Under the pieces are notes generated by a model that saw only the letters and a program-made list of their open reading frames with translations, was not told the origin of the DNA and made no database searches. From positions 1 through 59,100 of the forward strand of contig JAUWYL010000004.1 of assembly GCA_030615855.1 (NCBI GenBank): a stretch of 59,100 bases of DNA, read 5' to 3'. This DNA is from a bacterium. GTDB lineage: Bacteria > UBP18 > UBA7526. Shown piece after piece: positions 42,386 through 47,226 of the stretch; positions within the stretch are counted from its first letter, which is position 1, and each line of letters begins with the position of its first letter. A program made the translations under genes and the position numbers.

Positions 42386-43366
42386 CTACCACCTCATAAC
42401 GCAGGAAGCCCAGGTAAAACCGCCACCGAAGGCCACTAAAATAATCAGGTCTCCCTTCTTTATTCTTCCCTTCTTCACCGCCTCATCCAGGGCAAGGGGA
42501 ATGGAAGCCGCAGAGGTATTACCATATCTATCGAGATTAATGTAGACCTTCTCTGAAGGAAGACCCAGCCTCTTGGCCACGGCATTGATGATCCTCGCGT
42601 TTGCCTGATGGGTGATGAGAAGGGAGAGCTCCTCTGCTTTTACTCCTGCCCTCTTCATTCCTTCCAAAGCAGCCTCTTGCATGGACTGTACCGCAATCTT
42701 GAAGACCTTATTCCCCTCCATCTTCATGTAATGGAGTCTTTTGTCTATGGAATCATGGGTGGCTAAAATGCGTGAACCCCCAGCCGGTATCCGGAGGAGG
42801 TCCCAGTTTCCTCCATCTGCCCTTAAGTAACTGGAGAGGATCCCCTGGCCCTCTTCAGCCGGTTTCAATACCGCGGCCCCTGCCCCATCACCGAAGAGAA
42901 TGCAGGTAGTACGATCCTCCCAGTCCGTGATCTTGGATAGGACCTCAGAGGCAATGACCAGGACGGTATCATACTCTCCAGAAGCGATGAAACCTCGGGC
43001 AATAGAGAGGCCATAGATGAAACCAGAGCAGGCAGCCTCCAGATCAAAGGCCGCTGCCTTCTTTGCTCCCAATCTATCCTGGATGAGGCAAGCAGTAGCG
43101 GGGAAGACGAAATCTGGAGTAACGGTAGCGACGATAATTAAGTCCAGTTCCTCTGAGTTTACCTTAGCATCTTCCAGGGCTCTTCTGGCTGCTTCAAGAG
43201 CAAGATCCGAGGCCGCTGTTTTATCATCTGCGATATGGCGTTCCCTTATCCCCGTTCTCGCTATAATCCATTCGTTAGAGGTATCGACCATCTTCTCCAG
43301 GTCTTCATTGGTCAGAATCCTCGGTGGAGCATAAGAGCCAACACCGACAATTTTAGCCGACCTCAT
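42386..43366 (-). CDS. fabH: beta-ketoacyl-ACP synthase III
   Basis: AACSGF, HQAN, GNTSAAS. Confidence 0.97.
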   Translation of the reverse strand: MRSAKIVGVGSYAPPRILTNEDLEKMVDTSNEWIIARTGIRERHIADDKTAASDLALEAARRALEDAKVNSEELDLIIVATVTPDFVFPATACLIQDRLGAKKAAAFDLEAACSGFIYGLSIARGFIASGEYDTVLVIASEVLSKITDWEDRTTCILFGDGAGAAVLKPAEEGQGILSSYLRADGGNWDLLRIPAGGSRILATHDSIDKRLHYMKMEGNKVFKIAVQSMQEAALEGMKRAGVKAEELSLLITHQANARIINAVAKRLGLPSEKVYINLDRYGNTSAASIPLALDEAVKKGRIKKGDLIILVAFGGGFTWASCVMRW

Positions 43367-44361
43367 ATCTTCTCTCCTTTAATGTCCTCTATAATGTGGG
43401 CATTCACTTTATGGTTAATGAATTCACCCGCTACCCTGAGAGCATTCTTTATTGCCAAGCTAGGGGCCCCGCCATGGGTTATAATGCATACCCCATTGAT
43501 CCCCAAGAGTGGCGCCCCTCCATACTCCGAGTAATCAAACCTCTTCTTCAATGCCCGGTAGGCCCCCATTGATAGTAGGGCACCAAGTTTGCGCAAAAAA
43601 TTCTTGGTGATTTCTTTCTTAAGCATTCCCTGTATGGTCTCTGCCAGGCTTTCCCCAGTTTTCAAAACAATATTGCCGATAAAGCCATCGCAGACGATGA
43701 CATCCACAGAGCCATTAAAGATATCCCTTCCCTCAACATTTCCAATAAAGTTTAGAGAAGTTTTTGCTAACAGGTCGTAGGTGGCCTTTGTTAACTCATT
43801 TCCCTTAATCCTCTCTTTTCCTACATTTAAAAGACCTACCTTTGGTTTTTCTATTCCTAAGATCTCTTTAGCATAGGTATTCCCCATGATGGCGAACTGG
43901 AGAAGATGCTGGGGTTTACAGTCCACATTCGCTCCCACATCGGTCAGTATTGAGACCCCGTATATGTGAGGTGTTAAGATGGCAATGGCTGGCCTCTCAA
44001 TCCCCTCCAATGTTCCCAAGACGACCTTAGTAGCCACCATGGCCGCCCCGGTATTCCCAGCAGAGACGATGGCCTGTGCCTTCCTCTCTTTCACTAACCT
44101 GGCAGCTACCATAATGGAGGAGTCCTTTTTCTCACGTAGAGCACTGGTGGGCAGCTCACCCATCTCCACTACCTGAGAGGCATGAATAATAGAAAGGGAG
44201 AGTCCTTTAGCAGGATATTTGGCTAACTCCTTCTTTACTTTCTCTTCATCCCCGACCAAGATTACTTCTAAATCCTTGTATTCTCTTAGAGCCTGGATGG
44301 CTCCCTCAACTATTATTCCCGGAGCCCTATCCCCTCCCATGGCATCCAGGGCAACCCTCAC
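43363..44361 (-). CDS. plsX: phosphate acyltransferase
   Basis: DAMGGD, SAGNTGA, DVGAN, CDGF.GN. Confidence 0.97.
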   Translation of the reverse strand: MRVALDAMGGDRAPGIIVEGAIQALREYKDLEVILVGDEEKVKKELAKYPAKGLSLSIIHASQVVEMGELPTSALREKKDSSIMVAARLVKERKAQAIVSAGNTGAAMVATKVVLGTLEGIERPAIAILTPHIYGVSILTDVGANVDCKPQHLLQFAIMGNTYAKEILGIEKPKVGLLNVGKERIKGNELTKATYDLLAKTSLNFIGNVEGRDIFNGSVDVIVCDGFIGNIVLKTGESLAETIQGMLKKEITKNFLRKLGALLSMGAYRALKKRFDYSEYGGAPLLGINGVCIITHGGAPSLAIKNALRVAGEFINHKVNAHIIEDIKGEKI

Positions 44362-44678
44362 TTCTTCTCCTTCTTCTTGGGAGGGATGATCTCCCTTCCC
44401 TCATAGTAGCCGCACTCTGGACATACCCTATGGGGAAGTTTTGGAGCCCCACACTGAGGACAGCGGGATAGGTTAGGGCTTTTTATCTTCCACTGCGCCC
44501 TCCTCTTATCCCTTCTTGATTTGGAATGCCTCCTCTTGGGCAGCTGTAAAACAATAACCATGCCTTTGAGAAGCGCCATTTCGCTCAAAGGCTTCTCTTT
44601 AAAGGCGAAGATAACTATTCCCACCAGCAGCAACAGTGTGCCCGCTAGAATTACTCTAAAGACTTTTCCCTTCTCCAT
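44358..44678 (-). CDS. rpmF: 50S ribosomal protein bL32 (Zn-ribbon type) with an unusual hydrophobic N-terminal extension; start uncertain
   Basis: PKRRHSKSRRDKRR, CPQC...HRVCPECG. Confidence 0.9.
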   Translation of the reverse strand: MEKGKVFRVILAGTLLLLVGIVIFAFKEKPLSEMALLKGMVIVLQLPKRRHSKSRRDKRRAQWKIKSPNLSRCPQCGAPKLPHRVCPECGYYEGREIIPPKKKEKK

Positions 44679-44704
44679 ATTCGTTCCTTTTAAATCGCCT
44701 TGTC

Positions 44705-44732
44705 ATTCTACCAAAACGAAAGAATTTGTCAA
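44705..44732 (-). promoter_or_regulatory. sigma70 promoter of rpmF-plsX-fab
   Basis: TTGACA-16 bp-TAGAAT. Confidence 0.7.
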
Positions 44733-44764
44733 GTTTTGTTACGAGATTTTTGAAAAAAGGATGC

Positions 44765-44845
44765 AAACGGATTGTGGCGGATGCAGACGGAAATTCTTCT
44801 TTGACGATTTGTCCGTTTGAATCCGCTTAAATCTGTCTGAATCCA
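44765..44845. repeat. inverted 10-bp array (CGGAT / ATCCG)
   Basis: read directly. Confidence 0.7.
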
Positions 44846-44865
44846 TGACTTTTTTAGAGCTCTCG

Positions 44866-45858
44866 TTATTGGGCCTGGAGAGAAGTAATGGCTACCAGAT
44901 TGATGATATCCTCGACGCTACAGCCTCGGGAGAGATCATTCACCGGTTTTGCCAGTCCCTGCAAGATAGGGCCGATGGCCTGAGCACCGGTCAATCTCTG
45001 GACCAACTTATAACCAATATTTGCAGAGTTTAAATCGGGAAAGATTAAAACATTTGCCTTTCCCGCGATAGGACTCTTGGGAGCCTTTTGAGTTGCCACC
45101 TCTGGGATCAAAGCAGCATCTGCCTGTAGCTCCCCATCGACCAAAAGCCCTGGCGCTTTCTCTTTGACTATTTCTGTTGCTTTTCTCACCTTATCTATTA
45201 ATTTATGGCTAGCACTTCCCTTTGTGGAAAAAGAGAGCATAGCCACTCTCGGTTCGCACCCCATTAAATCCTTTGCCGTCTTGGCTGAAGCGATAGCAAT
45301 ATCTGCTAATTCCTCTTCATTCGGATTGGGAAGGATGGCACAATCAGCGAAGATTAATGTCCCATTCTCTCCAAATTTCTCATCCTTTAAAATCATAAGA
45401 AAGGAACTCGATGCCTTCTTCACTCCGGGGGCGGTCTTTATGATCTGTAGGGCAGGCCCTATGGTCTCTGCCGTAGTATGGATTGCTCCGGATATTGAAC
45501 CATCTGCCTCGCCCTTCTTAACCATCATTGTCCCATAGAAAAGAGGCTCCTTCATAACAGAAAGAGCCTCATCCTTGCTTATTCCCTTCTCTTTTCTAAG
45601 TTCGCAATAAGTGTTTGCGTAATCCTCTAATCTCTCTGATTTCTCTGGCTCAATAATCCTTGCTTTTCCAATATCTACTTTTAGAGATTGGGCTATATCT
45701 TTTATCTTTGATCCCTCTCCCAGAAGGATTGTCTCTGCTATGCCCTCCTTTAGAATCTCTGCCGTTGCTTTAATGGTTCTCTCTTCCTCACCTTCAGGAA
45801 GGACAATCCTCTTAGGACTCTTTCTTGCCTTCTCCCTAATCTCTTCCAATAAATCCAT
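44866..45858 (-). CDS. pta: phosphate acetyltransferase
   Basis: IVLPEG, FADCA, MLSFSTKGS, DGELQADAA, PVNDLSRGC. Confidence 0.96.
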   Translation of the reverse strand: MDLLEEIREKARKSPKRIVLPEGEEERTIKATAEILKEGIAETILLGEGSKIKDIAQSLKVDIGKARIIEPEKSERLEDYANTYCELRKEKGISKDEALSVMKEPLFYGTMMVKKGEADGSISGAIHTTAETIGPALQIIKTAPGVKKASSSFLMILKDEKFGENGTLIFADCAILPNPNEEELADIAIASAKTAKDLMGCEPRVAMLSFSTKGSASHKLIDKVRKATEIVKEKAPGLLVDGELQADAALIPEVATQKAPKSPIAGKANVLIFPDLNSANIGYKLVQRLTGAQAIGPILQGLAKPVNDLSRGCSVEDIINLVAITSLQAQ

Positions 45859-46081: not shown

Positions 46082-46564
46082 TTACTTAGTTAATTTCTCC
46101 TTCAACCTCTCCTCTATCACCTTGGGAACCAACTCACATAATGAGCCACCGAAACTCACCACTTCCTTAATCATGCTTGAGGAGAGATAGGAATATTTGG
46201 CAGAGGGCATCATGAATACCGTCTCGATCTCCTTATTCAACTTCCTATTCATCAATGCCATCTGAAACTCATACTCGAAGTCGGAGATGGCCCTCAAGCC
46301 TCGGATAATGACCTTTGCTCCAATCTTCTTGGCATAATTGACCAATAGTTCATCAAAGCTATCGATCTTTACATTCTTAAGATCTTTAGTAGCCTCTTTT
46401 AACATATCAATCCTCTCCTCCACGCTGAAGAGGGGCTTCTCCTCTGGATTCTTCACTACCGCCACTACTAGTTCATCCACAATTCTTAAGGCACGCTTTA
46501 TCAGATCAATATGACCATTGGTTACTGGATCGAAACTTCCCGGATAAACAGCAATCTTCTTCAT
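46082..46564 (-). CDS. coaD: phosphopantetheine adenylyltransferase
   Basis: YPGSFDPVTNGH, RGLR..SDFEYE. Confidence 0.97.
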   Translation of the reverse strand: MKKIAVYPGSFDPVTNGHIDLIKRALRIVDELVVAVVKNPEEKPLFSVEERIDMLKEATKDLKNVKIDSFDELLVNYAKKIGAKVIIRGLRAISDFEYEFQMALMNRKLNKEIETVFMMPSAKYSYLSSSMIKEVVSFGGSLCELVPKVIEERLKEKLTK

Positions 46565-46582
46565 AAGGCCTCCCACTCTCCT

Positions 46583-46680
46583 TCATTGAACTTTGAACAT
46601 TTTACATTGAACATTAAAATCCATTTTGCATTTTACATTTTTCACTAATCTACTCTCCTACTTTCCTACTCTCCTACTAT
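46583..46680. repeat. ACATTGA / TTTTGCA / CTACTCT arrays; related copy at 47240-47371
   Basis: read directly. Confidence 0.7.
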
Positions 46681-47226
46681 CTTTTTATAAAAAGTAAGAA
46701 CCGTATCTCCGTATCTCTCTTGCCTAATCTGAATTAGTGAGCCAATTTCCTTATCTAAATTAAGGGATTTATGATGTTCGGCAATGACTAAAGTAGTAAT
46801 TTTCAATATATCACTTTTTGCCAGTGCTTGCAAGGTATTTTTTACTAATCTACTTTCGTAAGGTGGATCCAGAAATATGATATCAAATCTCTTCTTTTCC
46901 TTGCTCAGATTACCGATTGCTTTCAGGACATTATTTCGAGGGATCTTAAGACCCTCTTCAGGATGCAAGAAGCCTAAATTGGTACGGATTAATCTTATCG
47001 CAGAAGGATGATTATCAATAAAGATGACCTCTTTCGCCCCCCGGCTTAAGGCCTCAATCCCGATCTGCCCGCTTCCCGCATATAAGTCAAGAAAGCTCGC
47101 GCCAACTACCCTATTGCCCAAGATATTAAATAGTGCCTCCTTCACCCGCATAGGGGTAGGCCTCATCTTAACGCTCTTCAGAGTCTTCAGCCTTCTTCCC
47201 CTAAACTCTCCCCCAATTATTCTCAT
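46666..47226 (-). CDS. rsmD: 16S rRNA m2G966 methyltransferase
   Basis: MRIIGG, RPT, LDLYAGSG, DPPY, YGDT. Confidence 0.95.
   Translation of the reverse strand: MRIIGGEFRGRRLKTLKSVKMRPTPMRVKEALFNILGNRVVGASFLDLYAGSGQIGIEALSRGAKEVIFIDNHPSAIRLIRTNLGFLHPEEGLKIPRNNVLKAIGNLSKEKKRFDIIFLDPPYESRLVKNTLQALAKSDILKITTLVIAEHHKSLNLDKEIGSLIQIRQERYGDTVLTFYKKIVGE

Follow-up and report, generated by a model that had tools for sequence, protein, structure and literature searches.

The window analysed here is the stretch of 59,100 nucleotides (nt) that opens contig JAUWYL010000004.1 (assembly GCA_030615855.1), from a bacterium of the lineage UBP18 (UBA7526), and the subject of this study is its rpmF gene, which encodes ribosomal protein bL32 and, as the first-pass annotation of the window had claimed, heads a lipid-synthesis operon (rpmF-plsX-fabH-fabD-fabG). 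The rpmF open reading frame (ORF) begins far upstream of the place where bL32 ordinarily starts, and we find that the additional N-terminal segment is a conserved part of the protein throughout the family to which the window belongs. It comprises 46 residues ahead of Pro47, about 44 beyond the canonical M-A-V-P start; the extension announced by the annotation is therefore real, and slightly longer than the roughly 43 residues it had counted. The features that define the gene are as follows.

44705..44732, minus strand: sigma-70-type promoter, TTGACA (44732-44727), 16 nt spacer, TAGAAT (44710-44705), with a TG-extended -10 element
44685..44689, minus strand: Shine-Dalgarno (SD) sequence AAGGA, 6 nt ahead of ATG 44678
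44676..44678, minus strand: start codon ATG, Met1 of the long bL32
44358..44678, minus strand: rpmF ORF, 106 amino acids
44358..44360, minus strand: TGA stop of rpmF, sharing bases with the GTG that starts plsX (GTGA)
43363..44361, minus strand: plsX, second gene of the operon, ahead of fabH, fabD and fabG

The promoter agrees with the consensus at 11 of 12 positions and is the sole such site between 44200 and 45000, where shuffled sequences yield a mean of 0.5. The same TTGACA-N16-TAGAAT arrangement occurs at equal distance in five of the six DNA copies of rpmF available from the family and is missing from the sixth, L034, in which the aligned start codon is GTG; it is ATG in the other five. 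All six copies carry an SD sequence (AAAGGAG or AAGGA) with a spacing of 5-6 nt to this ATG or GTG. Because codons 44-46 read TTA CAG CTG, the canonical M-x-x-PKRR position of rpmF offers no start codon. The annotation had named the promoter, the AAGGA of the leader and ATG 44678, and had remarked on the lack of a canonical start; each of these lies exactly where it had been placed.

Translated from ATG 44678, the protein divides into four parts.

44655..44675, minus strand: basic N-terminal tip, E2-R8, net positive
44601..44654, minus strand: uncharged hydrophobic helix, V9-F26, 18 residues, transmembrane-like
44541..44600, minus strand: linker, K27-L46, KEK..LL.GM(V/A)(I/V)ILQ(L/V), joining the helix to the core
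44361..44540, minus strand: bL32 core, P47-K106, with the PKRRHSKSRRDKRR tail and a four-Cys zinc ribbon

The core identifies the protein as bL32. Both the Pfam profile Ribosomal_L32p (PF01783; 97.3 bits, cut-off 21.3) and the NCBIfam profile rpmF_bact (TIGR01031; 88.9 bits, cut-off 22.6) match residues 47-98 only, the zinc ribbon is present, and a tblastn search of the protein against the whole window genome places rpmF as its single bL32 locus. In its core, far above both cut-offs, and in its surroundings, the typical rpmF-plsX-fabH-fabD-fabG order with rsmD and coaD upstream, the gene resembles canonical rpmF, whereas it has lost the canonical start, gained 46 conserved residues and acquired pta upstream in place of yceD. 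The family trait that it does not share is an initiator Met two to six residues before P-K-(R/K): the Met nearest to PKRR lies seven residues upstream, without a usable SD.

We found bL32 in 39 of the 41 genomes searched. Within the family, the long form is present in all relatives with a match (four genomes, five gene copies: G002 with two, and G003, G004 and G005), which align at 78-87% identity over residues 1-106 or 8-106 of the query and are stop-free; the fifth relative, G001 (75% complete), gave no rpmF match. The family stands alone among the genomes compared, because every other genome shares only the domain. A search of a collection of 5.8 billion proteins matched 421, and among the best 120 of these, 22 clusters (P0001-P0022) of 102-141 residues cover 66-100% of the query, the remaining 98 being 58-89 residues long with a coverage of at most 59%. 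All 22 begin with Met and two to four Lys/Arg, continue through a hydrophobic run, K-E-K and a short variable stretch, and end in LL-x-G-M-(V/A)-(I/V)-I-L-Q-(L/V) joined directly to PKRRHSK. Together with the window protein they make up the 23 long forms referred to below. The two rpmF copies of G002 (L031 and L033, on contigs C60 and C22) differ from each other and are each followed by plsX; they look more like a mixed bin of two strains or species than like a duplication.

Elsewhere the N-terminus of bL32 varies by a few residues only. Among 16 non-family rpmF frames that could be read by a motif scan (eight further loci were unmatched and one match was spurious), 15 start M-x-x-P and one V-A-V-P, probably from a GTG. 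In each of the 37 matching solved bL32 sequences the alignment opens at query residue 45 or later (45 or 46 in 36, 49 in one), with merely 1-5 residues before the first aligned residue. Apparent longer matches in other phyla (Myxococcota, Thermoactinomycetes and others) were checked and rejected as extensions: at the 13 non-family loci with long tblastn matches, six show canonical M-A-x-P starts, and in the other seven the displayed frame is a separate upstream ORF, YceD-like in Myxococcota, with the rpmF start outside the display. A search among longer proteins yielded just a partial rpmF-plsX fusion call, namely an entry named 'PlsX, partial' (P0122) that is a long-form rpmF read through into plsX, and one YceD-bL32 fusion of 223 residues from a different lineage (P0123). 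The ESM Atlas returned ordinary bL32 clusters only, at 0.88.

Conservation within the long forms is patterned. Two to four K/R residues precede the hydrophobic run in every one; in the helix, G20 is invariant and G13, seven residues before it, nearly so; in the linker, L44 and Q45 are invariant, and K27, E28, K29, L31, L36, L37, G39, M40, I43 and L46 are conserved in at least 90%. The zinc-ribbon cysteines C73, C76, C86 and C89 are invariant in all 23. On the Kyte-Doolittle scale, the maximum over 19 residues is 2.67 for the window protein, 1.96-2.89 in 22 of the 23 long forms and 1.76 in P0012, compared with -0.25 and -0.08 for two canonical bL32 proteins. By this measure the predicted hydrophobicity of the extension is of bilayer-spanning grade. 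The 21-residue stretch marked in the first-pass annotation is hydrophobic as described, though it takes in Arg8, and the uncharged run amounts to 18 residues. P0012 (141 residues, from one metagenomic contig) carries an in-frame basic insertion of 35 residues in the middle of the helix, which may be a small mobile insertion; if that gene is functional, the helix tolerates disruption.

The extension also evolves as a coding sequence. Its frame is free of stops in all six family DNA copies, each of the other two frames containing several; the indels in the family rpmF alignment are all multiples of three; and the third codon position is the most variable. The ratio of nonsynonymous to synonymous change (dN/dS, Nei-Gojobori, pooled over 15 pairs from the six DNA copies of this one family) is 0.24 for the extension as a whole (pair range 0.13-0.40); the helix stands at 0.45, the linker at 0.10 and the bL32 core at 0.09. 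The check proposed in the first-pass annotation, that relatives keep the extension in frame under purifying selection, thus comes out in favour of the extension. Judged by these substitution patterns, whose direction is unambiguous, the extension is translated and under purifying selection, with the linker as tightly constrained as the core.

These data bear directly on the suspicion that chance alone keeps the upstream frame open, or that it belongs to a 5' leader, the long ORF being an untranslated artefact. Gene callers often over-extend ORFs, and clusters P0002, P0005 and P0014 are indeed called from still further upstream. Against this stand the low dN/dS, the variability of the third position, the frame-keeping indels, the confinement of stops to the other two frames, the conservation of both SD and start codon, and the lack of any alternative start with an SD. 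We regard such an artefact as close to refuted and give it hardly any weight.

A more serious question is which start codon the ribosome uses, as the linker contains two in-frame ATG codons and an inverted repeat.

44577..44579, minus strand: internal ATG, Met34, with a weak SD
44562..44592, minus strand: inverted repeat GCCTTTGAG/CTCAAAGGC, 9 bp, within linker codons
44559..44561, minus strand: internal ATG, Met40, candidate alternative start, with AAAGG 1 nt away

The coordinates of the two ATGs and of the repeat are those given by the first-pass annotation, which had offered, as one of its two explanations, a leader or hairpin that controls an internal start. We compared the three starts by the energy of the duplex between each upstream region and an anti-SD motif, using a generic motif, the 3' end of the genome's own 16S ribosomal RNA (rRNA) not having been found. 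On that basis, Met1 has the strongest duplex of the three in six of six copies (-5.6 to -11.6 kcal/mol), with -2.3 to -5.5 kcal/mol for Met34 and -3.2 to -4.5 kcal/mol for Met40. Some clusters have V, I, T or G in place of Met34, and Met40, found in 22 of 23 long forms, gives way to Leu in P0021. As a conserved regulator the hairpin fared poorly: 85.2% of cells in the alignment of the six copies are paired, yet 407 of 500 column shuffles reach that value, and the repeat holds one compensatory change, in a set of copies too few to exclude a hairpin. Nor does the 176-nt RNA of leader plus extension fold better than expected (z = +1.0; 175 of 200 shuffles are equally or more stable). The idea of a hairpin-controlled internal start therefore found no footing, given weak or misplaced SDs, internal Met codons that are not universal and pairing without covariation.

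Initiation at Met40, or at Met34, is an alternative explanation of the locus, with ribosomal bL32 made from the internal codon and the 106-residue form a second isoform, possibly with a membrane or regulatory role. In its favour, Met40 is nearly universal among the long forms and leaves 7 residues before Pro47, where solved bL32 chains of 59-60 residues have up to 6; the resulting N-terminus would exceed that of Deinococcus or Thermus bL32 by only about one residue, and the inverted repeat is found just ahead of Met40. The evidence on the other side is that the sole SD-like sequence, AAAGG, is 1 nt from ATG 44561 and gives a weak duplex in every copy, that Leu occupies position 40 in P0021 and Met34 is unconserved, that Met40 is not singled out by conservation (G39, I43, L44, Q45 and L46 are equally conserved), and that the hairpin lacks covariation. 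An in-frame site inside a well-translated ORF would presumably also be occluded by elongating ribosomes. We consider an internal start for ribosomal bL32 unlikely, and take the 106-residue chain as the main product because the strongest SD is upstream, Met34 and Met40 are variable and the hairpin is unsupported.

The closest parallel to such a chain is the mitochondrial protein bL32m (MrpL32). According to two sources (PMC5438985, PMC8847149), the N-terminal region of bL32m must go before assembly and is removed by the m-AAA protease, a member of the FtsH family, which digests bL32m from its N-terminal end until the folded zinc motif halts it, leaving a mature N-terminus about 35 residues ahead of that motif. 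Unprocessed bL32m is absent from translating ribosomes according to a third (PMC7595625), and the dependence on m-AAA is described in these sources (PMC5438985, PMC8847149, PMC7595625) as conserved in yeast, mammals, plants and flies and as linked to human disease. The window protein belongs to the same protein family, has the same four-Cys zinc ribbon and a long N-terminal region foreign to canonical bL32, and shares its compartment with an FtsH-family membrane protease. The two differ in that bL32m is nuclear-encoded and carries an unstructured import presequence (71 residues in yeast), whereas here a bacterial gene without import encodes a short basic tip, a membrane-grade hydrophobic helix and a conserved linker, for which processing would be the analogous fate.

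By this analogy, we propose that the product is a pro-bL32 and that its hydrophobic front is cut away ahead of assembly, with FtsH as the simplest agent, just as m-AAA matures bL32m, and we give this about an even chance of being right. The proposal starts from what is directly supported: gene structure, start signals, conservation, selection, hydrophobicity and the presence of ftsH. Translation from the SD-preceded ATG 44678 would yield a 106-residue pre-protein consisting of tip, helix, linker and zinc-ribbon bL32. The hydrophobic pro-segment would keep freshly synthesised bL32 in or at the membrane, or label it in some other way, and would be removed by proteolysis before bL32 joins the 50S subunit; the simplest candidate for the protease is the membrane-bound AAA protease FtsH. 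Applying the mitochondrial ruler of about 35 residues before C73 would put the mature N-terminus near residues 38-40 (G-M-V-I-V-L-Q-L-P-K-R-R). With the N-terminus there, G-M-V-I-x-L-Q-L would fall in the mature tail, which would account for its core-like conservation. FtsH is encoded in the window genome (Peptidase_M41, 239.9 bits, contig C19), as are signal peptidase I (S26) and an RseP-type M50 protease; no rhomboid was found in this genome. The membrane-tethered precursor suggested in the first-pass annotation thereby stands as regards a coding, conserved extension with an upstream start and transmembrane-grade hydrophobicity, with insertion and maturation staying conditional.

Bacteria offer a looser likeness. 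In Firmicutes, bL27 carries an N-terminal propeptide that is cut by the cysteine protease Prp, its tail reaching the subunit interior; that propeptide is short and non-hydrophobic, and Prp is encoded adjacent to bL27. The shared trait is a bacterial large-subunit protein with an N-terminal extension, which in bL27 must be removed. Here, in contrast, the extension is of 46 residues, hydrophobic and on bL32, in a genome without a Prp match.

Several observations weigh against a removable pro-segment. The positive-inside rule states that a positive N-flank favours an N-in orientation, and by inspection the N-flank has a net charge of +2 to +4, the KEK flank about +1, and the very basic tail follows 20 residues on. 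An N-in orientation would leave only 8 cytosolic residues for FtsH and place bL32 outside. The local charge rule and the basic domain would imply opposite topologies. An AlphaFold2 model built from the 23-sequence alignment predicts helices at 2-28 (block-mean predicted local distance difference test, pLDDT, 71-89), 30-44 (low confidence) and 51-65, with an overall confidence that is low (mean pLDDT 63.9, predicted template modelling score 0.22). The linker is as conserved as the core, which a disposable pro-segment need not be unless the linker belongs to the mature protein. The dN/dS pairs are kin and non-independent, drawn from just six DNA copies of one family. No match to Prp (Peptidase_Prp, PF04327) was found in the window genome (93.6% complete), the control search being positive in 3 of 14 reference genomes. 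That the bL32 N-terminus is buried is drawn from one review table and general background rather than from coordinates. Finally, everything past synthesis of the long form, from association with the membrane to cleavage, its position and the protease responsible, consists of steps that we infer. As to topology, the helix may also lie peripherally on the membrane, form a hairpin with helix 30-44, or serve as a hydrophobic recognition tag.

That a hydrophobic front should have to go before assembly would fit what is said of the position of bL32. The basic N-terminal tail of bL32 runs into rRNA. A review table places the protein at the tunnel near the peptidyl-transferase centre (PMC9409020). The same placement weighs against the opposite idea, that the extension is kept and, through its helix, attaches 50S subunits to the cytoplasmic membrane in place of targeting through the signal recognition particle (SRP), comparable to the tethering of mitoribosomes. 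In one study (PMC5694952), SRP RNA docks at the tunnel exit on the C-terminal domain of bL32, a point in favour of such an anchor, although it is the C-terminal domain that sits at the exit and the extension is N-terminal. The core-like constraint on the linker and the Gly13/Gly20 pattern, which suggests specific helix packing, also favour a retained anchor. Against it, the N-termini of bL32 elsewhere differ by few residues, unprocessed bL32m is excluded from translating mitoribosomes (PMC7595625), and the insertion in P0012 splits the helix.

The state of the SRP pathway in these genomes adds to the case for an anchor. Across the six family genomes (G000, the window genome, to G005; 53-94% complete) we found neither SRP_SPB (PF02978) nor ffh (TIGR00959); the SRP54 GTPase domain (PF00448) gave P-loop-level hits only (15-24 bits) and ftsY (TIGR00064) at most 18 bits; and no small SRP RNA was detected in any of the six with the model RF00169, the large SRP RNA model being untried. 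A tblastn search of Ffh and FtsY against the window genome gave nothing better than E = 0.009, with six frames from three other bacteria as queries, two of them without an SRP54 match and the effective number thus four. SecY and SecA are present in the window genome. YidC is missing there and was recovered in four of the six family genomes, and since it was recovered in relatives where the SRP genes were not, the SRP result is not due to incompleteness alone.

The same survey cuts the other way outside the family. SRP_SPB was unmatched in 5 of the 35 other-family genomes, including G013, so that loss of SRP is not tied to the extension or else the search misses genes. G013 (locus L007) has the nearest non-family bL32, in an AT-rich genome of 1.2 Mb that is 100% complete, with a canonical rpmF directly before plsX; YceD, the SRP54 domain and SRP_SPB were all unmatched in it, and G013 may represent another lineage of small genomes in which SRP cannot be recognised. 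A canonical bL32 start in a genome of this kind speaks against a retained anchor as a substitute for SRP, and we judge the anchor to be decidedly improbable. The known counterpart would be mL45/Mba1: mL45 is described as a membrane tether of the mitoribosome in PMC11452305, and most mitochondria are stated to lack SRP in PMC8321541. The likeness, which holds only if the anchor is retained, is that a large-subunit protein near the exit fixes an SRP-less ribosome to the membrane; the proteins are unrelated, and mL45/Mba1 attach peripherally, not through a helix at the N-terminus of bL32.

The tip and helix also have the look of an export signal, in which case residues 1-25 would be a Sec-type signal peptide cut by signal peptidase I, and bL32 would be exported or moonlight outside the cell. 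Consistent with this are a positive n-region and an h-region of 16-18 residues, a small residue (A, S or G) at position 25 and I, V or L at position 23, each in 22 of 23 long forms as read by eye (the exception at position 23 being T in P0003), and a genome that encodes the signal peptidase S26 (LepB). An extremely basic mature part blocks Sec export, however, and here PKRRHSKSRRDKRR follows 20 residues past the helix; a polar c-region is lacking, and the genome has no second rpmF gene, the core of this one being a conserved bL32 under strong constraint. We find export scarcely credible. By eye, a Tat signal (RR in some forms only, with KR, KK or GK in others) and a lipoprotein signal (no lipobox Cys) can likewise be set aside. 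Having weighed these alternatives to a pro-bL32 matured before assembly, we reserve the leftover probability for mechanisms that we have not thought of.

Nothing in the searches points to where the extension came from. A word search with residues 1-46 gave seven candidates, of which only four are long-form bL32. The sole HMMER hit with the same residues among 1.84 billion representatives (P0121) is a 612-residue tandem-repeat protein that matches in 10 stretches, and was rejected as spurious. No paralogue of the extension was found in the window genome by tblastn (best other match E = 0.25), and in G013, the nearest non-family genome, no small ORF lies upstream of rpmF. The extension thus appears to have no detectable relative outside long-form bL32 proteins. 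A crude scan of basic proteins with an N-terminal hydrophobic helix listed five ordinary secreted-looking ORFs and failed to recover rpmF itself.

Loss of YceD as the cause of the extension was considered and rejected. The first-pass annotation had remarked that yceD, which usually precedes rpmF, is absent, and YceD (PF02620) was indeed not found in any of the six family genomes, including the 93.6% complete window genome. It is also unmatched in 9 of the 35 other-family genomes, so its loss is not lineage-specific and its absence is not diagnostic; in these nine the bL32 matches open close to the canonical start, at query residue 36 or later, and a canonical bL32 start could be read directly in two.

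The bL32 extension is well supported as an observation. In bacteria it is rare for a ribosomal protein to be synthesised as a precursor, bL27 with Prp being the classic example. In the literature searched, with most subscription journals outside its coverage, a bacterial bL32 with such an extension is undescribed, and the mitochondrial protein is the only bL32 precursor found described. If a pro-bL32 is matured here, control of the entry of bL32 into the ribosome by an N-terminal extension would not be purely organellar, the family would offer a simple bacterial system for maturation of bL32 by an FtsH-type protease that stalls at the zinc ribbon, and ribosome production would be physically linked to the membrane at the head of a lipid-synthesis operon. 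Should the helix instead be retained, against our expectation, ribosomes would be attached to membranes in a new way, and a free-standing bacterium would have its own counterpart of the mitochondrial ribosome, which does without SRP and is tethered to the membrane. That SRP is apparently missing from these very genomes heightens the interest of a precursor and of an anchor alike.

Transcript data touch the locus only at its margin. One RNA run with a small share of the stretch gave two contigs, both on the plsX (44000-44315) of a relative, with rpmF uncovered, and a second RNA run had no match to the stretch.

Upstream of rpmF lie pta, coaD and rsmD, in the order rsmD-coaD-pta-rpmF-plsX, on minus-strand ORFs at 44866-45858, 46082-46576 and 46666-47226. 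The rsmD-coaD...rpmF neighbourhood resembles that of Bacillus, where yceD directly precedes rpmF, the place taken here by pta. In L034 (from G003) the pta upstream of rpmF appears truncated or frame-shifted, in a record with masked or unknown residues. Between pta and the rpmF promoter (44733-44865) lies a short repeat element, parts of which occur on four other contigs of the genome at 86-96% identity, and metagenome contigs break or diverge at this repeat, with loose ends at 44750-44792.

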